A stretch of DNA of 64,000 nt, taken from assembly GCA_964356545.1 (NCBI GenBank), contig CAYHHX010000001.1:1918-65917 (forward strand), in the 5' to 3' direction. Below are positions 7,737 through 55,475 of the stretch, piece by piece. How positions within the stretch are numbered: the stretch's first letter is position 1; each line of letters opens with the position of its first letter. A program made the translations under genes and the position numbers. This DNA comes from an uncultured Candidatus Saccharibacteria bacterium (GTDB lineage Bacteria > Patescibacteriota > Minisyncoccia > Minisyncoccales > Staskawiczbacteraceae). Below the pieces are notes generated by a model. It saw only the letters and a list, made by a program, of their open reading frames with translations, was not told the origin of the DNA and ran no database searches.

Positions 7737-8184
7737 ATCTTAACAAGATGAGTGATTGCTCTTTATTAAATTGAGGAGAGGAAAGTCCGAACACCATCCT
7801 GAACTGATTTATCAGTGAAGGATAAAATAGTAGTGGCTAACAGCCATCCATAGTAATATGCGAGGTGCGAACAGTGACGCCGAGTTTCGAAAGAAACAAG
7901 GCACCGAGTATATAAATTTATTTATGTGCGAGGTGAATTCAACTGAAAAGTTGAAGTGAAACGGCTAAATCCTTATTGGGTGCAAGAACAAAGTCCCGCC
8001 CCCTAAGCAGTTAATTTTTATCAGGAAAAACCTGAGAGAGCTCTAATAGATATATTTTTTTGAGTTCTTGAATTACAGCATAGGGGGCGGGATTAAAAGT
8101 AGTTCGCTTGAATCAAGAAGTAATTCTTGGTCTAGACAGATAATCACATAAAACAGAATTCGGCTTACGGTCTTGTTAAGATAA
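7737..8184 (+). ncRNA. rnpB: RNase P RNA, bacterial type A.
   Basis: P4 strands 'GAGGAAAGTCCGaACac' (~7783) and 'ACAGAAttCGGCTTAcGG' (~8153). The P1 helix is formed by 7737-7748 'atcttaacaaga' pairing with 8171-8182 'tcttgttaagat'. Confidence 0.85.
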
Positions 8185-13198: not shown

Positions 13199-13386
13199 CA
13201 AATTCCAGTTCGTTTATTTTTCCCTCGTAAAGTAGGTTCCAATATTTTATAGGACTATAGTACATTAGAGCCTTTTATCCCTAAAAAGCGTTTTTAGTTG
13301 CATTTTTGTTATAAAATAGGCAGAATAGAATAATGTGTTTTAAGATTAGTTTTATGATATAATTTCTTAAAACAAGAAAATAAAAT

Positions 13387-13893
13387 ATGAGTTACGAAAA
13401 TGTACCATTTGGCGCTCCTGAAAAGTTTAATGTCGTGGTTGAAATCCAAAAAGGTGGCCAGGTGAAGTACGAATACGATGAAGCGTGGCATGAAATAAAA
13501 GTAAGTACTATTTTTAAAAATGGATTTTGTTTTCCGTTTGACTATGGATATGTGCCACAGACTCGTGGTGGAGATGGTGACCAGCTTGATGTATTTGTAT
13601 TGGGCTCACAGTCTGTTCAAATGGGGGCGGTTGTTGAATGTCGTTCGATTGGAATGATTGAGTTAATTGATAGGGGTGAAAAAGATGATAAAATTTTAGC
13701 AATTCCTTTGAATGATTTAGGTTTTGAGAATATTAAAACATTAGAAGATTTACCTTTTGACTACAAATCTATTTTCGAAACATTTTTTAAAGAGTTAGCG
13801 ATTCAAAGGAATAAGACAATGGAAATTAGGGGGTATAAAGATAAATCAGTTGCAATCGAAGAATTAAAAATGGCACACAAAAATTTTAAATAA
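13387..13893 (+). CDS. ppa: Inorganic pyrophosphatase (family I).
   Basis: 'FDYGYVPQTRGGDGDQLDVFVLG' is the PPase active-site region. 168 aa. Confidence 0.85.
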   Translation: MSYENVPFGAPEKFNVVVEIQKGGQVKYEYDEAWHEIKVSTIFKNGFCFPFDYGYVPQTRGGDGDQLDVFVLGSQSVQMGAVVECRSIGMIELIDRGEKDDKILAIPLNDLGFENIKTLEDLPFDYKSIFETFFKELAIQRNKTMEIRGYKDKSVAIEELKMAHKNFK

Positions 13894-14935: not shown

Positions 14936-15081
14936 CTGAACTCGTTTGATTGGTAGGAGGGCTTTTGTCCTTATTATCTCCGTTTTCAAACACTTATCAA
15001 ATGTGAGCGGCAGTAATGCCGTCTTTTTTGAAAATATTGATTATTTTATTGATAGATGGTACCATAAATAAAGTAAAGGTA

Positions 15082-15222
15082 ATGGAAATAAGAAAACAGA
15101 TTTTTATTTATAAAAATTCAAAGGTTGAAAATTTAATGTTTCAAGTTTTTTCTATTATTTATCATAAATATCACGAGAAAAGTTTTTCTCTTTTAAAAAA
15201 TATTTCTGGAAGTTTTATTTAA
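15082..15222 (+). CDS. Conserved small protein (46 aa). Divergent copy A of a four-member repeated unit.
   Basis: Aligns codon by codon with the copies at 44364, 49220 and 54666 (I-R/E-K/R-Q-I-F/Y...KNSKV...MF...FS...KY-H/Q-EKS-F/L-SL...IS...F-I). The differences are mostly synonymous or conservative (GAG/GAA, AAA/AAG, TTT/TTC). SD 'aaagg' upstream. Confidence 0.5.
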   Translation: MEIRKQIFIYKNSKVENLMFQVFSIIYHKYHEKSFSLLKNISGSFI

Positions 15223-15252
15223 AAATACACCCATTAGTGGGTGTATTTTTTT
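15223..15252 (+). terminator. Intrinsic terminator of repeated unit A.
   Basis: 'atacacccattagtgggtgtat' hairpin plus T7. The same hairpin, with compensatory loop changes, ends all four units. Confidence 0.7.
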
Positions 15253-15270
15253 GGGGACATCTTAGAAAAC

Positions 15271-15288
15271 GGTGGCTGTTCTCATTTC
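15271..15288. repeat. REP element (reverse orientation, partial).
   Basis: 'ggtggctgttctcatttc' matches the family consensus AATGGTGGCTGTCCCCATTTCC. Confidence 0.5.
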
Positions 15289-15354
15289 TGCCCCCCCAAC
15301 AAATTAACTTTATTTTGAAATATTATTTAATAATCAATATAATCAAAGTTGAGT

Positions 15355-18300
15355 ATGAATAAAATAAAAAACAATTTTCATAAAAATAAATTAGCATTCA
15401 GTAAAAAAGTGACGGCATATTTATTGATTGCATTATTTTTCTATTTTCCCTTAGAGTCGGTTTTTGCAGAAGAAAATATATCAGAAAATATAAACAAAGA
15501 AGAAACTTCGGCAAGCCAACTAGTCGATTCCGAAAAAAATAATCAAGAGAAACCTCTAGCAGAAAAAAATATTATCGGGGATACTAAAAATAATATTCAA
15601 CAAAAAGGTGAGCGTAAAAATAACGAGAAAGAAGATAATACAGACAAAAAAGAACGCAACAAGAAAAAGAAAAATGATTCGGATGATGAAGAATTAATCC
15701 AAGCGCAAGCTGCGGGTTCATCTTCAGGTTCATCTAATAATAATCAGTTTGCGTTTAACCCGGCCGCAAAGATAATGATGCCAGAAGCCGATACCACCAC
15801 CGGCGCGCTGGTGTATTCTTATCCTATCGAAGTGCCGTCGGGCAGAAATGGCATGGCTCCGAAAGTTTCACTGTATTATAATTCTCAGAAAAATGACAAT
15901 GCTTCAATAGTAGGATTTGGCTGGGATTTGGACATTCCCAAAATAGAAAGGGTTAACAAGCACGGAGTTAATAAATTATATGATTACCAAGATTTCCAAT
16001 CTTCGCTTTCCGGCGAGTTGGTGAATGTTTCCGGAAATGATTATGGCGCAAAAATAGAAAATGGTTCTTTTCTGAAATACCAATTAAATAATGAGATATG
16101 GACTACCACGGATAAAAAAGGCACTATTTACAAGTTTGGAAGTTCTAACTCATCAAAAATTTATAATTTATCAGATACAAGCAAAATTTACTCTTGGTAC
16201 TTAGATGAAATTATAGACACTAATGGAAATTTCATAAAATATACTTATATAAAAGATAATACTGATAATTTTTTGTACCCTGATAAAATAATTTATACAG
16301 GCAACGGAGAACTATCGGGGATTTTTTCAGTTGAATTTAAAAAAGAATCCAGGCCGGATTCCTATACAATCAATAACGCCGGTTTTTATCAAAAAATAGA
16401 TGAAAGAATTAATTCCATAGAAACATATATAGCCGGTAATTTAAACAGAAAGTATGATTTAACATACGGAATGGGAGACAACGGGAAGCGTTCTATGTTA
16501 GAAAAAATAACTGAAAGCGGGAGAGACAATCTTGGCATTACCGCCACCTTGCCATCTTTTGACATTGCCTATACCGAAGGAAATATTGGCTTGGCAGATG
16601 CTCCGTCAATCAGTTATCCGTGGGTTACAGAAACCGATTCAAATGGAAATTCTTATACAACGCCTTTTACATTAGCCGATCAATCTATCAGGATCATAGA
16701 TATAAACGGCGATGGGTTAAAAGATATTGTTAAGTCGTCTGTTGCCTACGGGCAATGGGGAGCTATGTATCCAAATTTTTGGGTTTTAAAAAATAATGGG
16801 TCAGGGTGGGTAGTGGATAATTCATGGAGTCAACCAACATATTCTTATGTTAACGGTAGCGGAAGAACAATAAGCGAATATTTTACTTTTTCAAACGCAA
16901 TTGACGTTGGAGATTGGAATGGCGACGGCAAAGATGATTTGATTAAATTTTGGGTTGAAAATTTAGGCGGCGGAGCAAATAAACAACATGCAGTTGTTTT
17001 GTTAAATACTGGTGCAGGTTGGACACAAAATACAAATATAGAAACAGATACGCCGACCTATATGAGTTATAATGCCGGTATACAGAATTTATACCTTTAC
17101 TCTGGCTCAAGTGGCTCTAGTCGTTTCATTGATCTTAATGGCGATGGATTGATTGACTGTATCAATGCTTGGAACCATCAAATAAATGGCATTAATTATC
17201 CATCTTTTGCAGTATTATATAACGATGGTGAAGATTTAAAATGGGATCCTACAGTGCTTCAACTATATTTTAAGAATAGTCCAACTTCAGCAAGTAGTCC
17301 GCTTGCGTTAACTAACAGCATAAAAATATTAGATATTAACGGCGACGGACTTGTTGATTTTATGTCCGCTCATAATTACCAAATAAACGGTATTGATAAC
17401 CCATCATTTTGGGTGCTAATAAACAATGGGCATGGCTGGGACCAGGATTTTGGTATAACACATCCCCGATACACTGCTCTTGATGTGAATGATAACCTAC
17501 AAACAAATTACTTTAGCAGCACTTCGGGGTGGCAAGTTGTTGATATAAACGCAGACAATTTACCTGATTTTATTATATTTGCGCCACTTAATAGCGGAGG
17601 CGGAACATATAAAAAAAGGAAAACAGTTTTAATAAATACTGGCAAGGGATGGATCCAAGATGACAGTTTGATTAATATTGGGGACTATTCGTATACATAT
17701 AACGGCAGCACACAAACTAATTATCCTAGTTCCAGCGATGCCGGCAGCGCTTTTCTTGATATTAACGGCGATGGGTTGGTTGATATTGCTCACCCATCTT
17801 TTTATCAGCAACAGGGAATTTACTATACTATTAATTGGACGCTTATAGGAAGCGGTAAAATTGCCAACACTTTGTCAAAGATAACATTACCTGAAGGTGG
17901 CTCTTATGACATTGCATATAAAATGACAAGCGCATATAGGGATGTTTTGGGAAATTTACTGAATAGTAGTTTACTATTAGCATATAATACGGTTGAAAAA
18001 ATAATTCAAAATGATGGCAATGGCATAACGCATATTGCAAATTACAAATATGAGGGAGGACATTTTTTCTATGGTAGTGCTTTTAATAAGCGTTTTGCGG
18101 GATTTAGTATAATTTACAAAAACGATTTTGCGGGCAATACAACCAAAACTTATTATCATACAGCCAATCAAAGCGATTCTAATTACGGAGAATTTCAAGA
18201 CGAATATTGGAAAATTGGTAAAGCATATAGTATAGAACAATATGATAATGCAAACCACTTATATACTAAAACTATAAACAAATGGGACAGTTTTGATTTA

Positions 18301-21300
18301 GGTGGTGGTTCAAAGTTTTTAAAGTTAGCTCAAACCGTAAATTATAATTTTGATGGCGATGCCACTCATCGAGATACAGCTGAAGGTTATACTTACGACA
18401 ATTCCAATGGTAATGTCACCCAGAAAGTTCAATGGGGCGAAGTGTCGGGGCAAGACAATGGAACATTTACTGATACTGGATCTGACAAATTTACCACTGA
18501 CTACGCTTATGCCTCCAATGCAAGCTTATCTATTGTTGGATTGCCATCAAAAGAAACGATAACAGATCAAAACTCGTTGAAGGTAAAGGAAAGCAAGTTT
18601 TATTACGATCTGCAGGCCTTAGGTAGTATTATTCAAGGGAACCTTACCAAAAAAGAGGATTGGAAAGTTGGTACTGCTTATATTAATAACCAAACAACTT
18701 ATAACAGCTACGGCTTGGCAACCGTTTCAACAGATCCGCGAGGCAAAACCACCAAGTATGTGTATGATGCTCATAATCTCTATCCTGCCACAGTAACCAA
18801 TGCCAAAAATCAATCCACTAACTATTTGTATAACTATGCTTTAGGGAAAATGACCCAGAAGACCGATCCAAGTAAAAGGGTATTTCAGTATGTCTACGAT
18901 GGATTGGGGCGTCTCATTGAAGAAAAACAACCGGATATTGCAACACCTTCAACATTAATAACAAAGGCAATCTATGTGTATACCGACACTCCAAACGCAG
19001 TAAGTGTTAAAAAATCCAGTTATTTGGACGCATTAAATTTTGCAGAATCATACACGTATTTTGATGGTTTAGGCAGAAAAATTCAGGAAAGGCAGGAGGC
19101 CGAGGGTACAGTTTTTGCCGTAAAAGATTATATCTACAATAATTTGGGTCTGATTACAAAAGAATCTCTACCTTATTTTTCAGCAAATTTGTCTAAGACT
19201 TCGCCAACCATTGATTCTGCGCTCTATATCAATTACAAATATGATGCCCTGGGCCGTGTAGTTTCTGTAACCAATGCAGTTGGCACTACCACAAATATGT
19301 ACAATGATTGGAAGCTTACGGTAATCGATGTAGGTGGTAAGTCTAAAGATTTATATAAAAATGCTTATGGCAGTTTAGTGCAGGTTGATGAGCATAACTC
19401 CCTTGATACATATAGCACATTGTATAACTACAACTATTTAGGAAACATTACTAAGATTACTGATGCGCTTTCTAATATCCGTAAATTTACTTATGATGGT
19501 TTGGGCCGTAGGTTAACCGCAGAAGATTTGCATGTATCATCAGATACAAGTTATGGTATCTGGACATATACCTATGACAATGCAGGTAACTTGACCCAAA
19601 CACTAGATCCAAATGGCCAAAAAGTAATCTACACTTACGACAACCTTAATCGTGTTCTCAAAGAGGACTATATTGGCGTTACTGGTACAGAGGCTACCTA
19701 TGCCTATGATGCTGGAACAGACGGCATTGGTAAATTAACCAATGTTATTAATAGCTCAATTACTAAAAACTATACCTACAATGCTTTGGGTTTATTGAAA
19801 AAAGAAACAGATAAGTTTGGCCTTACTATCTACATCACGACATATAGTTACGATAGGCAAGGCAACCAGACTACAGTTACCAATCCAGATAATTCTAAGG
19901 TGCAATATATTTACAACACAGCAGGCTTGCTTGACCAGGTCAAACGCAAGGAATCCATTGATAGCGCGTTTGTTAGTGTTGTCAATAATTTTGATTATTC
20001 TCCCGAGGGCAAAGTTACTATTCAGGAAAACTATAACGGAACAACGAACACTAATACGTATGATGTTGCCAAGCTCTACCGATTAACTAGTAAAGTTGCC
20101 ACCACTGCTAACGGAGACCGCATCCAGGATTTAAGCTACACATATGATTTAGTAGGTAATATCACTAAAATTGTAGATGCGTCCACCACTGCAACCGCCA
20201 AAACTTCCGACTACACATATGATGACCTCTATCGTTTAACCTCTGTAACTGTAACAGGCGTTGCTGTTGGCCAAGAGCCATACATTCAAACGTATAGTTA
20301 TGATGCAATAGGAAATATCATTACAAAATCGGATGTTGTTGGATCTTATATATATGACGGTACTATCTACGCCAATCCCCATGCAGTCACTATCATTGGT
20401 TCTGCAACTTTTTCGTACGATAACAATGGCAATCTGTTAAACTCTACCAGCGGTTTTATTAATACATGGGACTATAAGAATCGTTTAATACAATCAGTCA
20501 AAGAAACAATAACAAACAGCTACGGATATGATGCCGAAGGCCAAAGAGTAAAATTAATTACCGCCGATAAAAACACTTATTATCCAACTAAATCCTATAA
20601 CATTACTTTTCTAAATTCTGATACCCAAAACCCAACATCTATTACAAAGCACATCTTTGCAAACAGCATAGACATTGCTACAATAGAAGGCACAGGGGCA
20701 ACTTCTCAAATCTACTACGCATCCAAGGATTTACTGAACAGCTCTAGCATCATAACCGACAGTGTTGGCGTAATTGCTGAGACTATGGATTACTTCCCAT
20801 TCGGCGGAATCAGAATAGACCAAAAAGTCACTGGCAGCTCTTTCTCGGAACAACGTAAATTCATCGGCCAGGAATACGACCAAGACACAGGCCTAAACTA
20901 TCTTAATGCGAGATACTACAACGCAACTATTGGAAGGTTCATTTCCCAAGACCCAATGTTTTGGCAACTGCCAAATGAGCTACTCGCCGACCCGCAACAA
21001 TTGAATTCCTATTCCTACGCCCGCAATAACCCGATAATAGGTAGTGACCCGAGCGGGTTATTAACCGTCATTGTTCCTGGAACCAGCTATAATTCAAAAG
21101 ATTGGTCGTCTTCTGGCTCGATGTCAAATTTTATCTCTTCAGTTGGCAAGACCTTCAATGAAACACATCAAACAAGTGTGATAAACGATAAAAGTAATTG
21201 GTCGGGTGGCGATAATTCTAATGCTCGTCAAAAAGCAGCAGAACATATCACAGGGTTTATAAAAGACTATAAGTTTGCTGATGGAGAACAGTTAAACATT

Positions 21301-21729
21301 GTTGGACATAGCCATGGCGGAAATATTGGAATTCTTGTTAGTCAAAAAACAGAAAGAAAAATAGATAATCTTGTAACTCTTGGTACTCCAGCTAGAAGCG
21401 ATTACCAACCAAATTATGATATGGTGGGACGTCACATAAATGCATACAGTAATGTAGATATGATACAGGGAGGCGGAGGTGGACAAACAAATTTATCTGC
21501 AGTGCTTCTTGGGACTGTTGGTAATGCTTTTGGTATTCCTGGAGCAATTATTGGATATGCGCTTGGTAATATATTAGGCTGGGGAGAATTTGGTTCTGCC
21601 GGTAGAAAATTTAGTGGAGCGGAAAACATTAGTGTAACTAAAGAAGCTGGTCGTTTTAGTCCCTTTAGTTCTCATTCTAATTTATTGCAAAGTAGCGTTT
21701 GGTCAAGGGTTGATAAATTAATTAAGTAG
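15355..21729 (+). CDS. Giant secreted polymorphic toxin: signal peptide, SpvB-like domain, FG-GAP/VCBS-like repeats, RHS/YD repeats, RHS core (DPxGL), and a C-terminal alpha/beta-hydrolase (lipase/esterase-like) toxin domain.
   Basis: Signal peptide 'KKVTAYLLIALFFYFPLESVFA'. SpvB-like 'GMAPKVSLYYNSQ...IVGFGWDLDIPKIER'. Repeated 'DINGDGLxD' / 'DWNGDGKDD' motifs. Numerous YD repeats ('YTYDxxGNL', 'YxYDxLxRL'). RHS core 'RYYNATIGRFISQDP...NSYSYARNNPIIGSDPSGLL'. The C-terminus carries 'IVGHSHGGNI' (a GHSxG nucleophile elbow). ATG 15355 is preferred over the TTG at 15349. Confidence 0.85.
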   Translation: MNKIKNNFHKNKLAFSKKVTAYLLIALFFYFPLESVFAEENISENINKEETSASQLVDSEKNNQEKPLAEKNIIGDTKNNIQQKGERKNNEKEDNTDKKERNKKKKNDSDDEELIQAQAAGSSSGSSNNNQFAFNPAAKIMMPEADTTTGALVYSYPIEVPSGRNGMAPKVSLYYNSQKNDNASIVGFGWDLDIPKIERVNKHGVNKLYDYQDFQSSLSGELVNVSGNDYGAKIENGSFLKYQLNNEIWTTTDKKGTIYKFGSSNSSKIYNLSDTSKIYSWYLDEIIDTNGNFIKYTYIKDNTDNFLYPDKIIYTGNGELSGIFSVEFKKESRPDSYTINNAGFYQKIDERINSIETYIAGNLNRKYDLTYGMGDNGKRSMLEKITESGRDNLGITATLPSFDIAYTEGNIGLADAPSISYPWVTETDSNGNSYTTPFTLADQSIRIIDINGDGLKDIVKSSVAYGQWGAMYPNFWVLKNNGSGWVVDNSWSQPTYSYVNGSGRTISEYFTFSNAIDVGDWNGDGKDDLIKFWVENLGGGANKQHAVVLLNTGAGWTQNTNIETDTPTYMSYNAGIQNLYLYSGSSGSSRFIDLNGDGLIDCINAWNHQINGINYPSFAVLYNDGEDLKWDPTVLQLYFKNSPTSASSPLALTNSIKILDINGDGLVDFMSAHNYQINGIDNPSFWVLINNGHGWDQDFGITHPRYTALDVNDNLQTNYFSSTSGWQVVDINADNLPDFIIFAPLNSGGGTYKKRKTVLINTGKGWIQDDSLINIGDYSYTYNGSTQTNYPSSSDAGSAFLDINGDGLVDIAHPSFYQQQGIYYTINWTLIGSGKIANTLSKITLPEGGSYDIAYKMTSAYRDVLGNLLNSSLLLAYNTVEKIIQNDGNGITHIANYKYEGGHFFYGSAFNKRFAGFSIIYKNDFAGNTTKTYYHTANQSDSNYGEFQDEYWKIGKAYSIEQYDNANHLYTKTINKWDSFDLGGGSKFLKLAQTVNYNFDGDATHRDTAEGYTYDNSNGNVTQKVQWGEVSGQDNGTFTDTGSDKFTTDYAYASNASLSIVGLPSKETITDQNSLKVKESKFYYDLQALGSIIQGNLTKKEDWKVGTAYINNQTTYNSYGLATVSTDPRGKTTKYVYDAHNLYPATVTNAKNQSTNYLYNYALGKMTQKTDPSKRVFQYVYDGLGRLIEEKQPDIATPSTLITKAIYVYTDTPNAVSVKKSSYLDALNFAESYTYFDGLGRKIQERQEAEGTVFAVKDYIYNNLGLITKESLPYFSANLSKTSPTIDSALYINYKYDALGRVVSVTNAVGTTTNMYNDWKLTVIDVGGKSKDLYKNAYGSLVQVDEHNSLDTYSTLYNYNYLGNITKITDALSNIRKFTYDGLGRRLTAEDLHVSSDTSYGIWTYTYDNAGNLTQTLDPNGQKVIYTYDNLNRVLKEDYIGVTGTEATYAYDAGTDGIGKLTNVINSSITKNYTYNALGLLKKETDKFGLTIYITTYSYDRQGNQTTVTNPDNSKVQYIYNTAGLLDQVKRKESIDSAFVSVVNNFDYSPEGKVTIQENYNGTTNTNTYDVAKLYRLTSKVATTANGDRIQDLSYTYDLVGNITKIVDASTTATAKTSDYTYDDLYRLTSVTVTGVAVGQEPYIQTYSYDAIGNIITKSDVVGSYIYDGTIYANPHAVTIIGSATFSYDNNGNLLNSTSGFINTWDYKNRLIQSVKETITNSYGYDAEGQRVKLITADKNTYYPTKSYNITFLNSDTQNPTSITKHIFANSIDIATIEGTGATSQIYYASKDLLNSSSIITDSVGVIAETMDYFPFGGIRIDQKVTGSSFSEQRKFIGQEYDQDTGLNYLNARYYNATIGRFISQDPMFWQLPNELLADPQQLNSYSYARNNPIIGSDPSGLLTVIVPGTSYNSKDWSSSGSMSNFISSVGKTFNETHQTSVINDKSNWSGGDNSNARQKAAEHITGFIKDYKFADGEQLNIVGHSHGGNIGILVSQKTERKIDNLVTLGTPARSDYQPNYDMVGRHINAYSNVDMIQGGGGGQTNLSAVLLGTVGNAFGIPGAIIGYALGNILGWGEFGSAGRKFSGAENISVTKEAGRFSPFSSHSNLLQSSVWSRVDKLIK

Positions 21730-22032: not shown

Positions 22033-22072
22033 GGGGAAATAGGTACAGCCACTATTCTTTGTGATATGATAT
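22033..22072. repeat. REP element with a 3' extension 'tttgtgatatgatat', placed immediately 5' of the RAYT genes.
   Basis: 'gggggaaataggtacagccactattctttgtgatatgatatca'. The same extension follows the REP at 37693-37733. Confidence 0.6.
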
Positions 22073-22081
22073 CATAGTTCT

Positions 22082-22390
22082 ATGCCGAGGGTTCATAGAG
22101 TTGATATTAAAGAAGAGATATACCATATCATCAATCGCGCCAACGCACGGTTGCCGATTTTTTTTAACGAAGAAGATTATGTGCTATTTGAATTGATATT
22201 TGAGCAGGCGAAAGAAAGATTTGATATGCGTATCTTAGCATATTGCTTAATGCCAAATCATTTTCACTTGGTGTTGTGGCCAAAAGAAGATGACGACCTC
22301 CAAAAATTTATGCAATGGATTACCTTAACCCACACCCAGCGTTGTAAATGGGGTCAGCCACCATTTAATAATAAGTATGGTATACTGTAA
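22082..22390 (+). pseudogene. Truncated IS200/IS605-like HuH tyrosine transposase (RAYT, 5' fragment), cut by a REP insertion.
   Basis: Shares 'IYHIINRANARLPIF...YCLMPNHFHLVLWPKEDDDLQKFMQW' with the intact downstream copy but stops after 102 aa. The disrupted codons run through the REP 'aaatggggtcagccaccattt' (22346-22366). Confidence 0.65.
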
Positions 22391-22392
22391 GT

Positions 22393-23067
22393 ATGCCAAG
22401 AACAACAAGAACAGATGTTGCGCAAGAAATATACCATGTATTGAACAGAGCTAATGCCAGAGTGCAGATTTTTGATGACGATAAAGATTATCTAGATTTC
22501 GAAAAAATATTACAAGAAGCAGTAGAAAAGTTTAATATGGGGCTATTGGCGTATTGTATTATGCCGAACCACTGGCATTTAGTCCTGCATCCAAAACAAG
22601 ACGGCGATCTTGCTAAATTCATGGGATGGCTTTCAAATACCCATACGCGAAGATGGCATACCCAAAAGGGAACCATTGGACAAGGACATCTTTATCAGGG
22701 AAGATACAAGTCATTTTTATGCCAGCAAGATGATCATTTTATTACATTAGTTTTATATGTTGAGCGCAATGCAAAAAAGGCTGACTTGTGTAAGTTAGCT
22801 CAGGATTGGAAGTGGTCTAGCATTTGGCGAAGGGAGAGTGGATTGGCAGAGCAGACTGCGATTTTAGAGAAATGGCCGATTGATATGCCAAAAAATTATT
22901 TATCACTAGTTAATCAAAATCAAGACGCGAACGAAGAAGAAAGAATTGAAAAAGCCATTGATAAAAGTAATCCATATGGAGATACTCATTGGATTCAGAA
23001 AGTAGTTAAAAAGTTTGGTCTTGAGCAAACATTAAGAAGGGTGGGGAGGCCAAAGAATGGTGGCTGA
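22393..23067 (+). mobile_element. REP-associated tyrosine transposase (RAYT, IS200-like Y1 HuH transposase), apparently intact.
   Basis: HuH motif 'MPNHWHLVLHP' and catalytic-Tyr region 'GHLYQGRYKSF'. Its 3' end abuts the REP 'gaatggtggctgaccctaatttcc' (23056-23078). REPs of the same family are spread through the window. Confidence 0.75.
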
Positions 23068-23078
23068 CCCTAATTTCC
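23056..23078. repeat. REP element (reverse orientation) at the 3' end of the RAYT gene.
   Basis: 'aatggtggctgaccctaatttcc'. Confidence 0.6.
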
Positions 23079-39701: not shown

Positions 39702-39763
39702 TTTAAAGGGTTTTTTATTGCATTTTCGCTCTAAAAAAGGCATAATAGGATAATAAATCCAAT

Positions 39764-44029: not shown

Positions 44030-44363
44030 CACATTGGTTTGCGTAAAGGCGAATGATTTTATAGGAGTAACTCGTAGTTACTCCTTTTTATTTTCTGAAT
44101 TTATCACTATTCTTTCCTACTTTTCTTTGTCCGGAGATGAAAAAAAATGTCATTAATCAGTTAGTTACCCAGTACGAAAGAACTTTTGGCAAAGCACCCC
44201 ATGAATTATGCAAAGAGGTTGTCCAAGATTTAATAGCAGAAATGCCCCCAGAAGAAATTCCTTCAAGTTTAAAGTAAGTACTATTTAGTACACCAGTGGC
44301 CATAGTGTTGTTTTTTTGAAAAAACTGTTGATTGTTTTACTAACAGGTGGTATTATTAGCATA

Positions 44364-44513
44364 ATGAAGACAATAGAAAGAGGTAAGCAGATTTATATGC
44401 ATAAAAATTCAAAGGTTGGAATTTCAATGTTCCGCGCTTTTTCTAGTGTTCCTGATAAATATCAGGAAAAGAGTCTTTCTCTTTCAAAAAGTATTTCTGA
44501 AAATTTTATTTAA
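44364..44513 (+). CDS. Conserved small protein (49 aa), copy B of the repeated unit.
   Basis: Near-identical to copies C and D. Promoter TTGATT-N17-TATTAT lies directly upstream, giving a leaderless or near-leaderless start. Terminator at 44514-44543. Confidence 0.5.
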   Translation: MKTIERGKQIYMHKNSKVGISMFRAFSSVPDKYQEKSLSLSKSISENFI

Positions 44514-44543
44514 AAATACACTCATTAGCGGGTGTATTTTTTT
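44514..44543 (+). terminator. Intrinsic terminator of unit B.
   Basis: 'aatacactcattagcgggtgtattttttt'. Confidence 0.7.
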
Positions 44544-44545
44544 AA

Positions 44546-44620
44546 AAATTATGCATTTTGGAGAACATTTAACAATCGATGGATACGGTGGTAACTTTGA
44601 AAAGCTAAATGATGAAGAAT
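44546..44620 (+). pseudogene. 5' fragment of a pyruvoyl-dependent S-adenosylmethionine decarboxylase-like gene (speH/speD-like), truncated by a REP.
   Basis: 'MHFGEHLTIDGYGGNFEKLNDEE' matches the AdoMetDC N-terminus pattern G-x-H-L-x-x-D/E-x-Y-G-C/G-x-F-x-K-L-N-D. The frame then runs into the REP at 44617-44650. Confidence 0.45.
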
Positions 44621-44650
44621 GGTGGCTGTCCCCATTGTCCCTCCCATTAC
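44617..44650. repeat. REP element (reverse orientation).
   Basis: 'gaatggtggctgtccccattgtccctcccattac'. Confidence 0.6.
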
Positions 44651-44698
44651 TCATTACTGCAGAGGTCAGCCGTATTGCATTATAAGAAAAATCATGGC

Positions 44699-48974: not shown

Positions 48975-49094
48975 ATAGAAAAAATTAAGTCGTTAAGCAA
49001 ATGAAAAAACAAATAGTAATAATTCACCGGGGTTTCGCATTTGATACGTATAAATATAATAAATGGGGTGAAATAGGGACAGAAATAGGAAATA

Positions 49095-49120
49095 GGGGAA
49101 ATGGGGACGGCCACCATTTT
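49095..49120. repeat. REP element preceded by tandem degenerate half-repeats (49061-49094).
   Basis: 'aaatggggtgaaatagggacagaaataggaaataggggaaatggggacggccaccatttt'. Confidence 0.6.
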
Positions 49121-49183
49121 ATTTAATATTTTTTATTTGAATAAAATAATTAAGTGGCTATAGTGTTGTTTTTTTAAAAACTG

Positions 49184-49212
49184 TTGATTGTTTTATTGAC
49201 AGGTGGTATTAT
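49184..49212 (+). promoter_or_regulatory. Promoter of repeated unit C (TTGATT-N17-TATTAT). The same arrangement is present in units B and D.
   Basis: TTGATT 49184-49189, 17-nt spacer, TATTAT 49207-49212. The ATG at 49220 sits ~7 nt downstream, so the transcript would be leaderless. Confidence 0.5.
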
Positions 49213-49219
49213 TAGCACG

Positions 49220-49369
49220 ATGAAGACAATAGAAAGAGGTAAGCAGATTTATACGCATAAAAATTCAAAGGTTGGAATTTCAATGTTCCGCGCTTTTTCT
49301 AGTGTTCCTGATAAATATCAGGAAAAGAGTCTTTCTCTTTCAAAAAGTATTTCTGAAAATTTTACTTAA
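49220..49369 (+). CDS. Conserved small protein (49 aa), copy C. Identical to copy D.
   Basis: MKTIERGKQIYTHKNSKVGISMFRAFSSVPDKYQEKSLSLSKSISENFT. See copies A and B for the selection argument. Confidence 0.5.
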   Translation: MKTIERGKQIYTHKNSKVGISMFRAFSSVPDKYQEKSLSLSKSISENFT

Positions 49370-49398
49370 AAATACACCAATTAGCAGGTGTATTTTTT
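49369..49398 (+). terminator. Intrinsic terminator of unit C.
   Basis: 'aatacaccaattagcaggtgtatttttt'. The stem is preserved relative to units A and B despite loop changes. Confidence 0.7.
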
Positions 49399-49415
49399 GA
49401 TTAAGTTAATGATTA

Positions 49416-49490
49416 TGCATTTTGGGGAACATCTTACAATTGATGGATATGGCGGTCTTTTTGAAAAGCTAAATGATAAAAATGGTGTCT
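49416..49490 (+). pseudogene. Second 5' fragment of the AdoMetDC-like gene (MHFGEHLTIDGYGGLFEKLNDKNGV*), ending in a degenerate REP.
   Basis: Same N-terminal peptide as at 44546, followed by 'aaaaatggtgtctgatccc' (a degenerate REP). Confidence 0.4.
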
Positions 49491-49641
49491 GATCCCACGT
49501 AGTATGTGAACCAGAGCTGGTGATTGACAACACTTTTTGGTTAATATAGTATGAAACTGAAGGATTAAGAAGCTTTGCGTTTTGCATATTTTTCCATGAT
49601 CCTTGTTGTTCTTTGAAAAAATAAAGGGAGGTTGGTAAAAC

Positions 49642-50670
49642 ATGAAGTACAATAACCATCTGAATCCGATGAGTGTGAGAGAGTTTTATTCCGATTCTGC
49701 TATGCCACTTTTTTACCAGGAGTGGGCTAATAACTCTGGTAAAGAACCTTTGAGTTCCAAAAAAGTCAGAATTGCTATTACCGAAAAGTGTAACTTCGCG
49801 TGTCCATTTTGTTATAACGAAGGAATGTCTAATATTTCAAAGATATTGAGCGTAGGAGATATTAGGTTAATTGCCGAGGCAATATCTCCTTACGTTTCAG
49901 GATTAAAGATTGTTGGTGGTGAGCCTTTGTTACATCCTCAGTTTGGCGAGGTTGTTGAGCTCTGTTCTAAAACTTGTTCAACAACTGTCACTACTAATGG
50001 GTTTTTCCTTGACCGATGGACTAAGTATTTGGAGAGACTTACTGGAATAACGGTAAGTATCCAATCGCTCAACCCAGAAATCTATCGGTCCTTAATGGGT
50101 ACTCGCTTTGGACCAGAAGTAGTATTAAGGCAGATATCCCTATTTACAGAAAAAACAGAGATACCAGTTTCTGTAAATTGCGTTTTGACAAATGAAAATT
50201 CTCCCTCGATTTTAAATTTCATCGAGGAAATAGTATCTTGTGGCGCCAATGCTGTAAATTTGTTGGGACTCCTTTGTATTACAGACAAGGACAAAGAGGG
50301 GTATTATCCCCTTACATCCATTGTTGCTATTCTGACCGACAAGTATGGTCAGCCCGAAGTTGTTTCAAGTACGAGATTGAGATTTAGAATAAAAGAAAGC
50401 GTCCACACAGATGTTGTATACCAATTCTGTATGGTGGGCTGTGGTGTTTGTCGAACCGACGGATTTATTCGATTCGATCCAACGCCTGCTATTTCTTACT
50501 GCCTAGCGTCAGGTCCCATATCGATAAAGGAGGAAATTGATTCGAAAGATCCCTTAAAAATTCGTCAGTTGTTTTTAAGGGCTGTAAACCAGATGGGTCA
50601 ACCAACTGGTTATAAATACCAGGTTGTCTCCAGGAGACCAGACTCCAAGGGGATATACTCCTTATTGTAA
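49642..50670 (+). CDS. Radical SAM enzyme with a C-terminal Cys-rich (twitch/SPASM-like) region.
   Basis: 'ITEKCNFACPFCYNEG' (CX3CX2C) and a second cluster 'QFCMVGCGVCRTDG'. Strong SD 'aaagggagg' precedes the ATG. Putative promoter TTGACA ~49527. Confidence 0.7.
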   Translation: MKYNNHLNPMSVREFYSDSAMPLFYQEWANNSGKEPLSSKKVRIAITEKCNFACPFCYNEGMSNISKILSVGDIRLIAEAISPYVSGLKIVGGEPLLHPQFGEVVELCSKTCSTTVTTNGFFLDRWTKYLERLTGITVSIQSLNPEIYRSLMGTRFGPEVVLRQISLFTEKTEIPVSVNCVLTNENSPSILNFIEEIVSCGANAVNLLGLLCITDKDKEGYYPLTSIVAILTDKYGQPEVVSSTRLRFRIKESVHTDVVYQFCMVGCGVCRTDGFIRFDPTPAISYCLASGPISIKEEIDSKDPLKIRQLFLRAVNQMGQPTGYKYQVVSRRPDSKGIYSLL

Positions 50671-54518: not shown

Positions 54519-54555
54519 GGAAATGGGGAAATGGAAATGGGGACAGCCATTATTT
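54519..54555. repeat. REP element with tandem half-repeats.
   Basis: 'ggaaatggggaaatggaaatggggacagccattattt'. Confidence 0.6.
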
Positions 54556-54665
54556 GACAATAAAATAGAAACAGAAATAAAATCTATTTTGAAATTAAGT
54601 GGCTTACCGTCGCTTTTTTTTAAAAACTGTTGATTGTTTTATTGACAGGTGGTATTATTAGCACG

Positions 54666-54815
54666 ATGAAGACAATAGAAAGAGGTAAGCAGATTTATAC
54701 GCATAAAAATTCAAAGGTTGGAATTTCAATGTTCCGCGCTTTTTCTAGTGTTCCTGATAAATATCAGGAAAAGAGTCTTTCTCTTTCAAAAAGTATTTCT
54801 GAAAATTTTACTTAA
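54666..54815 (+). CDS. Conserved small protein (49 aa), copy D.
   Basis: Identical to copy C, including the promoter (54630-54658). Terminator at 54815-54846. Confidence 0.5.
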   Translation: MKTIERGKQIYTHKNSKVGISMFRAFSSVPDKYQEKSLSLSKSISENFT

Positions 54816-54857
54816 AAATACACCAATTAGCAGGTGTATTTTTTGATTAAGTTAATG

Positions 54858-55475
54858 ATTGATTTTACAGATTCAAAATCGGTAATTGGGCTCATCGCAG
54901 GCATTATTGCTTTTACGGCTTATATTATCTATATAATTTCAATATTAAAAGGCAGAACCAAGCCAAATAGGTCAACTTGGTGGATTTGGTCGTTTATGGG
55001 ATTGGTGGTTGGACTAAGTTATTATTTATCAGGCGCCGTTAATACTATTTGGGTTCCAGTAGTTGAGTTTATAGGGCCATTATCTATTGCACTATTGTCT
55101 GTAAAATATGGAGAAGGGAAGTTGAGCGATAAAACAGACTTAATTTGTCTCGTTGGCGCGGTTTTGAGTGTAATTTTATGGATAATATTTAATAATCCTG
55201 TTATTGCTTTAGTAACCAATTTAGCGGCCGATTCATTTGCTATTGTTCCTACTATTAAAAAATCATATTTACGACCAGAAGGAGAAGATTTTTGGGCATG
55301 GCTTGGCACAGGCACCGCCGACAGTTTGAATTTCTTTGCTGTTGAAAGATTTTCCTTTGCGATTCTTATTTATCCGATTTATATGCTCGTTTCAGACCTT
55401 ATTATAGTTATAGTATTATTAATGAAGAAAAAAGATATTATGAAAGATACTAGTTTTCTTAGAAAAAAAATATGA
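54858..55475 (+). CDS. Hypothetical multi-pass membrane protein whose start codon lies inside the 3' end of repeated unit D.
   Basis: The ATG at 54858 is the same 'gttaATGatt' that precedes the AdoMetDC-like fragment in unit C. About six hydrophobic helices. Confidence 0.45.
   Translation: MDFTDSKSVIGLIAGIIAFTAYIIYIISILKGRTKPNRSTWWIWSFMGLVVGLSYYLSGAVNTIWVPVVEFIGPLSIALLSVKYGEGKLSDKTDLICLVGAVLSVILWIIFNNPVIALVTNLAADSFAIVPTIKKSYLRPEGEDFWAWLGTGTADSLNFFAVERFSFAILIYPIYMLVSDLIIVIVLLMKKKDIMKDTSFLRKKI

Follow-up and report, generated by a model that had tools for sequence, protein, structure and literature searches.

What is left of a gene, and of the region that controlled it, when the gene is lost from a very small genome? 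This question is raised by a stretch of 64,000 nucleotides (nt) from an uncultured Candidatus Saccharibacteria bacterium (GenBank assembly GCA_964356545.1, contig CAYHHX010000001.1, positions 1,918 to 65,917 of the forward strand; G+C content 34%), hereafter the window, whose numbering is used throughout. At 44546-44650 it carries the beginning of a gene of the S-adenosylmethionine (AdoMet) decarboxylase type, speH, which breaks off after 21 codons close to a repetitive extragenic palindromic (REP) element. We consider it probable that this interval is a dead 5′ remnant of speH at a REP, standing behind the control region of speH itself, a unit of about 250 bp of which the window holds four copies, A to D.

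Two short reading frames correspond to the 5′ end of speH

Positions 44551-44613 and 49415-49477, both on the forward strand, encode MHFGEHLTIDGYGG(N/L)FEKLND, that is, codons 1-21 of an AdoMetDC/SpeD-family gene of the kind found in bacteria of the Candidate Phyla Radiation (CPR). Stub B (44551..44613; peptide MHFGEHLTIDGYGGNFEKLND) starts with the ATG at 44551 and reads ATG CAT TTT GGA GAA CAT ... AAT GAT, and its frame stays open across the REP to a stop at 44685, giving an open reading frame (ORF) of 44 amino acids (aa). Stub C (49415..49477; peptide MHFGEHLTIDGYGGLFEKLND) starts with the ATG at 49415, directly 5′ of which lies an in-frame ATG-ATT at 49409, and uses the rare Leu codon CTT as codon 15. 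The same 44-aa stub ORF in the same gene order recurs in three assemblies, made independently from separate samples of Hainich groundwater (0.1 and 0.2 µm filter fractions), and the junction between stub and REP is therefore no assembly artefact. The alternative of an artefactual break, with an intact gene reading on past this point, was thus set aside, the rest of speH also being nowhere found in the window.

A phmmer search with the first 30 residues of the stub against 1.84 billion protein representatives returned the stub itself and three other proteins, P0002-P0004 (P0002, E 9e-5; P0004, E 4e-4). Matched to PF02675, P0002 gave 23.6 bits (E 7e-5) and P0004 17.3 bits (E 0.006), both weak and under the cut-off of 25. 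When a profile including the stubs was used, 1965 proteins were retrieved; among the matches listed (120), nearly all were PF02675 proteins of 123-144 aa, several were S-adenosylmethionine decarboxylases by name, from CPR bacteria, and the best homologues of the stub came from Moranbacteria, Zambryskibacteria and other CPR bacteria. Together with the gene content of the window, these homologues indicate a CPR (Patescibacteria) organism. Two full-length proteins, P0035 and P0009, were identical to stub B at 21 of 22 positions (full-length homologues measure 124-135 aa), and the stub covers the F-G-E-H, D-G-Y-G-G and L-N residues that are invariant in the family alignment. The assignment of the peptide to the N-terminus of a SpeH/SpeD-type pyruvoyl decarboxylase (PF02675), as the preliminary description of this DNA had it, is therefore sound. 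A Pfam scan of the stubs (25-44 aa) and of the small ORF described below gave no match even at E up to 10, and a PDB sequence search with a 23-aa peptide found nothing, because these peptides are too short for such methods; a word-indexed protein search with the 44-aa stub returned the self match alone.

The stub matches the N-terminal strand and the start of the helix of PF02675 proteins. The Glu-Ser self-cleavage site VVIxESHIS, which generates the pyruvoyl group and lies at about residue 70 of intact homologues, falls beyond the end of the stub at codon 21. With 21 of about 128 codons remaining, the stubs read as fragments of a family member and not as enzymes. CPR members of the AdoMetDC/SpeD family include neofunctionalised L-ornithine and L-arginine decarboxylases (PMC10407285); the diagnostic residues lie outside the stub, and the ancestral speH may have had AdoMet, ornithine or arginine as its substrate. 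When eight family members were compared with the window by tblastn, the only matches were to residues 1-24, at each of the two stub sites; about 10 kb of flanking contig yielded no further piece of speH either. On the basis of these roughly 74 kb we reject a simple insertion with the rest of speH lying beyond the REP.

Comparable stubs were noticed elsewhere. Locus L015 (1091-2608), from an unrelated organism with a G+C content of 48%, has a 58-aa speH-type N-terminal stub followed by a spermidine synthase gene and a divergent 94-aa AdoMet_dc gene, while in L013 a 49-aa frameshifted stub lies 5′ of an LPG_synthase_C gene; decay of a speH-type gene is therefore recurrent. We considered whether codons 21-23, where L013 diverges too, form a general breakpoint hot spot, and rejected this, as L013 shows an apparent +1 frameshift with residual homology and no REP.

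The upstream unit precedes an intact speH in a relative

The unit upstream of the stubs occurs on the forward strand at 15010-15270 (A), 44299-44550 (B), 49157-49414 (C) and 54603-54860 (D). A repeat search delimited 246 nt of it at 15022, 44313, 49169 and 54615, copies C and D being 100% identical, B 91% and A 74%, and a profile built from the four copies found exactly those four in the window. The identity of C with D covers 49169-49414. Unit A (15010..15252), the most diverged, has lost the aligned start codon of its small ORF and runs into a vestige of speH at 15249..15270 (forward strand), TTTTGGGGA-CATCTTA, which comprises codons 3-7 without an ATG and with one base deleted, and agrees with codons 3-7 of copy C at 16 of 17 positions. 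That little of the gene is left at A before a REP, as was said earlier, is thus confirmed.

An intact speH with this unit in front of it, the arrangement to be expected if unit and speH 5′ end travel together as the preliminary description claimed, was indeed found in a relative. On L081, a 984-nt metagenomic contig from another sample, nhmmer found the unit with E 2.2e-54, its nucleotides 79-83% identical to those of each copy in the window; directly behind it come an intact speH of 128 aa, a p49-like small gene and a membrane gene. C and D have the very same promoter segment, TGTTGATTGTTTTATTGACAGGTGGTATTATT, and the L081 spacer between unit and speH has the 8-mer ATTAAGTT in common with the C/D spacer. 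Because the unit stands directly 5′ of an intact speH there, it is best read as the native leader of speH in this lineage, made up of a terminator hairpin, a promoter, a 49-codon ORF on a probably leaderless message and a second terminator.

A second relative bears on the position of stub B. The 785-nt Hainich contig L082 carries, in order, the 3′ end of a p46-like gene, a hairpin, a promoter, an intact speH (P0020) and a gene beginning MKKQIVIIHGG..., and the flank to the left of its speH can be aligned with window 44240-44318, which borders B on the same side. Since this flank matches that of an intact locus, B is the remnant of the ancestral speH locus in place. The L082 speH promoter, TTGTTTTA-TGGTATAAT, resembles the unit promoter, which suggests that about 215 nt, comprising the small ORF and the terminator, have been inserted between promoter and speH, unless L082 has lost them. 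In relatives without the unit (L022, L016, L082) a TGnTATAAT box lies 7-15 nt 5′ of the speH ATG, a spacing that suggests a message with little or no leader; in L081 and at unit D no such box was seen between terminator and ATG (consensus reading only). The gene order is speH-p44-6TM-SET-HK in L022 and speH-6TM-SET in L080 (6TM, six-transmembrane-helix protein; HK, histidine kinase), and no spermidine synthase gene was noticed adjoining the intact speH of L022, L080 and L081.

The anatomy of the unit is regular. Its 5′ end is an insulating hairpin with a T-run, which in B doubles as the terminator of an upstream 46-aa gene and which A, D and L081 have kept although either arm has changed (aligned sequences read by eye). 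Then come a promoter, TTGATT-17-TATTAT with a TG upstream (extended -10), the small ORF of 49 codons (44364-44513 in B), an intrinsic terminator and a short spacer, and the ATG of speH lies 10-25 nt past the terminator. In five copies the small ORF is open, contains no indel and ends at one and the same alignment column, against 2-7 stops in the two alternative frames; the stop itself, TAA or TGA, coincides every time with the opening bases of the terminator stem AAAAATACACC...GGTGTATTTTT. The terminator too is conserved, its substitutions being one-sided and leaving the pairing intact. We see no support for selection on the small ORF at the protein level, its pN/pS (nonsynonymous to synonymous differences) being about 1 (0.65-1.44), and no homologue was found among 5.8 billion proteins. 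Since its ATG stands 7 nt past the -10 box, the mRNA is probably leaderless, and this spacing is also the sole sign that the small ORF may be translated. No antiterminator structure was identified in the predicted folds. A scan of species-representative genome contigs for a 21-nt unit motif gave eight matches, all chance (nhmmer aligned only the seed region), and Rfam 15 matched no part of the unit at gathering score (best E 0.94 in a permissive scan of 49080-49660).

In nearly all relatives of the membrane gene (L026-L079) an extended -10 box (TGnTAnAAT) was seen 7-15 nt 5′ of the start, without a Shine-Dalgarno sequence, which suggests that leaderless mRNAs may be common in this CPR group.

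REP elements lie at the breakpoints

The whole window was searched for a 12-nt REP core, GGGGACRGCCAC, allowing up to two mismatches. Twelve sites were found against 1.7 expected, none of 100 shuffles reached 12, and a decayed REP at C brings the total to 13. The aligned REPs have GRAAATGGGGACAGCCACCATT in common, usually with a G-run 5′ of it, and their arms AAATGG and CCATTT can pair; they look genuine. Stub B is closed by a REP at 44617..44640 (reverse strand; AATGGTGGCTGTCCCCATT) and stub C by the decayed REP at 49481..49496 (reverse strand; AATGGTGTCTGATCCCAC), the two stubs meeting the REP at the same junction within 1 nt. The REP closing the vestige at A (15271..15290, reverse strand) has a junction different from those of B and C. 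The gene accordingly breaks off at a REP at all three places, as had been proposed. On the forward strand, further REPs stand to the left of unit C (49095..49118) and of unit D (54531..54553).

The window also carries a Y1 transposase gene (22393..23067, forward strand; 224 aa; PF01797, E 1.4e-18) resembling the REP-associated tyrosine transposases (RAYTs), with REPs at 22041 (+), 22350 (+) and 23060 (-), that is, in inverted flanking orientation. It is 53% identical to a Y1_Tnp gene near speH in L016, and in L080 the same REP sequence lies 35 nt 5′ of that contig's own Y1_Tnp gene. Directly upstream is a truncated RAYT paralogue (22082-22390, 102 aa) whose homology extends to residue 87 and is followed by a REP at 22344-22366. 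A further 5′ gene stub, beginning MKKQIVIIH... (49001..49066, forward strand), is cut at REP-derived repeats at 49066-49118; its homology extends over about 18-24 residues and it is the start of the right-hand neighbour of speH in L082. Since speH, the MKKQ gene and the RAYT paralogue are all cut at REPs, truncation at REPs recurs in this genome. No clear REP doublets (REPINs) were seen, although no systematic search for close inverted pairs was made.

The 41-aa ORF in 49001-49126 begins with MKKQIVIIHRGFAFDTYK and then dissolves into tandem partial REPs (GAAATAGGGACAGAAATAGGAAATAGGGGAAATGGGGACGG). A 55-nt repeat of 82% identity at 63433-63511 and 23003-23071 covers the 3′ end of the RAYT gene (…FGLEQTLRRVGRPK) with its terminal REP, and we therefore place a second RAYT 3′ remnant near 63.4-63.5 kb. 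A C-terminal histidine kinase fragment (59674-59972; 40-45% protein identity to the L022 histidine kinase, itself a homologue of window 56111-57853) shares with the window kinase gene a 102-nt DNA repeat, 84% identical (57733-57846 and 59852-59965); its position just past a REP (59644) makes it a possible further gene remnant of the REP-associated kind.

REP sequences are said to have been described as join-points of chromosomal rearrangements by Shyamala, Schneider and Ames in the EMBO Journal in 1990. The window resembles REP-RAYT systems in its imperfect palindrome, present in many copies and mostly intergenic, in its single Y1 (IS200-like) transposase flanked by inverted repeats, and in having breakpoints at the repeats. 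An inverted orientation of the REPs around the transposase gene is also found in the REP/REPIN-RAYT systems described (PMC3116915, PMC3337134). It differs from them in the CPR/Patescibacteria host and in that its REPs end truncated coding sequences (speH three times, the MKKQ gene once and the RAYT paralogue once); repeats and transposase are known here from sequence alone.

Unit D abuts a membrane gene

Unit D has no remnant of speH and abuts a gene for a six-helix membrane protein (54855..55475, forward strand; 206 aa), the first of a conserved cluster 6TM-SET-p49-histidine kinase. Identity between C and D runs through GATTAAGTTAATGATT, the 16-nt spacer of unit C, and stops after ATGATT at 54860; in the C spacer this ATGATT lies just 5′ of ATGCAT. 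The sole in-frame ATG of the membrane gene, at 54855, is inside the piece shared with C, past which the gene continues GAT TTT ACA. The gene has no -10 box of its own, whereas its relatives have TGnTATAAT there in about 35 of 38 loci.

The preliminary description had seen here the start context of the unit, fused to an unrelated six-helix membrane gene to which it donated a start codon. The shared context and the fusion hold, with identity through ATGATT, although the start codon of the ORF is at 54855 and not at 54858. The gene is not unrelated to speH, for its homologue comes after speH in three relatives (L022, L080 and L081). Donation of the start codon is possible and is not required by the evidence: orthologues begin ATG-TTT-GAT or ATG-ATA-GAT at a comparable position, with N-termini varying from 8 to 16 residues in length, so that the 6-nt ATGATT may represent microhomology where the two sequences were joined. 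At A, B and C, the genes downstream start 60-160 nt past the REP with -10 boxes or Shine-Dalgarno sequences of their own (read by eye); these copies are therefore not fusions to a cargo, contrary to what had been supposed.

A proposed history of the locus

We propose the following history. In the intact module speH would have had no promoter of its own and would have been transcribed only by read-through of the unit terminator; a ribosome that reaches the end of the small ORF would sit over the 5′ arm of that terminator and so permit read-through into speH. REP-associated rearrangement would then have removed the body of speH at every copy in the window. B would be the remnant in place, C a second copy with the same REP junction beside the remnant of the former right-hand neighbour, and A an older, decayed copy, while at D the unit would now abut the membrane-gene operon found 3′ of speH in relatives, with the 6-nt ATGATT as the junction. 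Each stub would have taken its sequence from a functional speH, by separate truncation or by gene conversion, shortly before speH was lost. The stubs are probably without function, and D is the one copy at which control of a new operon by the leader cassette is plausible.

Leader peptides that act on polyamine genes include speFL in Gammaproteobacteria and the MAGDIS upstream ORF of eukaryotic AdoMetDC, and the pyrBI leader of Escherichia coli is a leader-peptide attenuator. The unit is like such attenuators in its short ORF 5′ of a biosynthetic gene, ending at or in an intrinsic terminator, in a downstream gene that seems to lack a promoter of its own, and in a peptide that is poorly conserved while its frame is kept. 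It differs in its apparently leaderless mRNA, in that neither an antiterminator nor a known signal was found, and in having no sequence similarity to pyrBI, speFL or MAGDIS.

The two stubs tell something of the timing. Over 63 nt they show nine base differences, namely six synonymous changes and one codon, AAC (Asn) in B and CTT (Leu) in C, at codon 15, the most variable position in the family (pN/pS 0.12; Fisher p 0.0009). Between stub B and the intact gene of L081 there are five synonymous and no nonsynonymous changes, C has its CTT codon in common with the intact L082 gene, and each stub is nearer to the intact gene of another organism (5 and 6-7 differences) than to the other stub (9). Since the differences are almost all synonymous, B and C are not copies of a single dead fragment that simply drifted neutrally. 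The locus shares with the gene remnants of reductive evolution a 5′ fragment of an enzyme gene that lacks the catalytic part, the Glu-Ser site included, and a copy, A, that is visibly decaying; by contrast, comparison of its two stubs with one another and with intact orthologues shows nothing but synonymous changes and a change at a single residue that varies naturally, an uncommon pattern in old pseudogenes. The identity of C and D is perfect, so that copying between these two loci is recent and ongoing.

Several points weigh against this history. The junction that B and C share at the REP fits one truncation, whereas their synonymous-only divergence fits two sources, and reconciling the two would need an extra assumption such as gene conversion or REP insertion that prefers a site. 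The stubs may have been overwritten by gene conversion from a recently functional speH; blocks of genes may have been inserted successively by recombination within the homology of unit and stub; or REPs may have inserted repeatedly at a preferred site. The unit precedes an intact speH on one short contig (984 nt), and in L016, L022, L025, L080 and L082 an intact speH stands without it. In the membrane genes most closely related to the one at D (38 loci, 66-83% identity), the order is 6TM-SET-p49-HK behind a promoter of its own, and speH does not occur within 6 kb; D may thus be a newly acquired position of the unit and not a deletion in place. That the unit is a translation-coupled attenuator of speH is suggested by its anatomy alone: the predicted folds show conserved hairpins with 4-5 compensatory pairs, a weak covariation drawn from only about three independent sequences. 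Finally, the claim that speH is lost covers about 74 kb of the genome.

Alternative explanations

It had been proposed that one truncated module, consisting of the unit, the start site, the speH 5′ end and the REP, was copied by REP-mediated recombination and fused to unrelated cargos, donating a start codon at D. Linkage of the unit with speH and the junctions at REPs stand from this proposal, and in its favour are the junctions of B and C, the same within 1 nt, the complete identity of C and D through ATGATT with the only ATG of the membrane ORF inside the shared piece, and the 8-mer shared by the spacers, which looks native to speH. As a whole we regard it as unlikely. The bias to synonymous differences between B and C and the rare CTT shared by C with an intact gene elsewhere are unlike neutral decay, the left flank of B is orthologous to that of the intact speH in L082, the membrane gene is the usual neighbour of speH in three relatives and its orthologues have comparable starts, and the genes 3′ of A, B and C have signals of their own by eye; the fusion to cargos at A, B and C thus falls away, B stands in place, and B and C are no neutral copies of each other.

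The unit could also be an independent gene for a small protein or small RNA that neighbours speH, its copies being ordinary segmental duplicates without a regulatory link. Its own promoter, the terminators on both sides, the ORF that is open in all copies and the five relatives whose speH lacks the unit all speak for this. We nevertheless think it improbable, as the genes downstream in L081 and D lack the promoter box that is near-universal in relatives, the ORF is without protein-level constraint or homologue, and remnants of speH directly follow the terminator in three of the window's four copies. Doubtful too, and to our mind quite improbable, is a stronger version of the leader reading, in which the unit would be an as yet undescribed, portable CPR attenuator cassette that natively governs a SpeD-family decarboxylase, has been redeployed by REP/RAYT recombination and controls the operon at D, the 21 speH codons being kept as part of the function of the cassette.

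Least of all do we favour the idea that the stubs are functional short ORFs whose first 21 codons are selected as a peptide, an upstream ORF or part of a leader: the pN/pS of 0.12, with its sole amino-acid difference at the most variable position of the family, and the short N-terminal stubs of other organisms (P0003, 49 aa; P0004, 58 aa) would agree with it, but selection on the stub peptide is very unlikely because no Shine-Dalgarno sequence or -10 box lies 5′ of the stub ATG, which directly follows a strong terminator, the two peptides end in unlike C-terminal tails (23 residues encoded by the REP in B, 4 residues in C), A has lost ATG and frame and D has no stub at all, and furthermore the L013 stub looks like a frameshifted pseudogene and the prominence of stubs among the phmmer matches is probably an effect of clustering (database clustered at 50% identity).

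Other features of the window

The gene 3′ of A (15349-21729) encodes 2126 aa with SpvB, FG-GAP and RHS-repeat domains and a hydrolase-like C-terminal tip, an architecture of polymorphic toxins that is large for so small a genome. A 36-nt promoter-like motif, TTTTTnnTTGCATTTTnGnTnTAAAAnAGGCAnAAT, occurs at 13291-13326 and 39711-39746, 5′ of the genes at 13387 and 39764, and at L081 21-56 (86-89% conserved). A 69-nt direct repeat (93% identity; 58553-58621 and 63518-63586) contains TTGACAATGATATGCT and may be a duplicated promoter segment. RNase P RNA was matched at 7740-8183 with 100.1 bits against a gathering score of 100, which marks it as unusually divergent.

Implications

Gene loss, rearrangement at REP sites and reuse of a promoter or leader are each a known type of event, and it might be the leader cassette that is worth further work. 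On the history proposed here, the loss of a polyamine-pathway gene from a very small CPR genome can be followed here to the base pair, with each breakpoint at a REP. The control region of speH would have outlived speH, and at D it stands where relatives have the promoter of the operon for the membrane protein, the SET protein and the histidine kinase. If the leader works as an attenuator, regulation would have been rewired in nature through the reuse of a leader cassette, and SpeD-family genes of CPR bacteria would have a first candidate cis-regulator.

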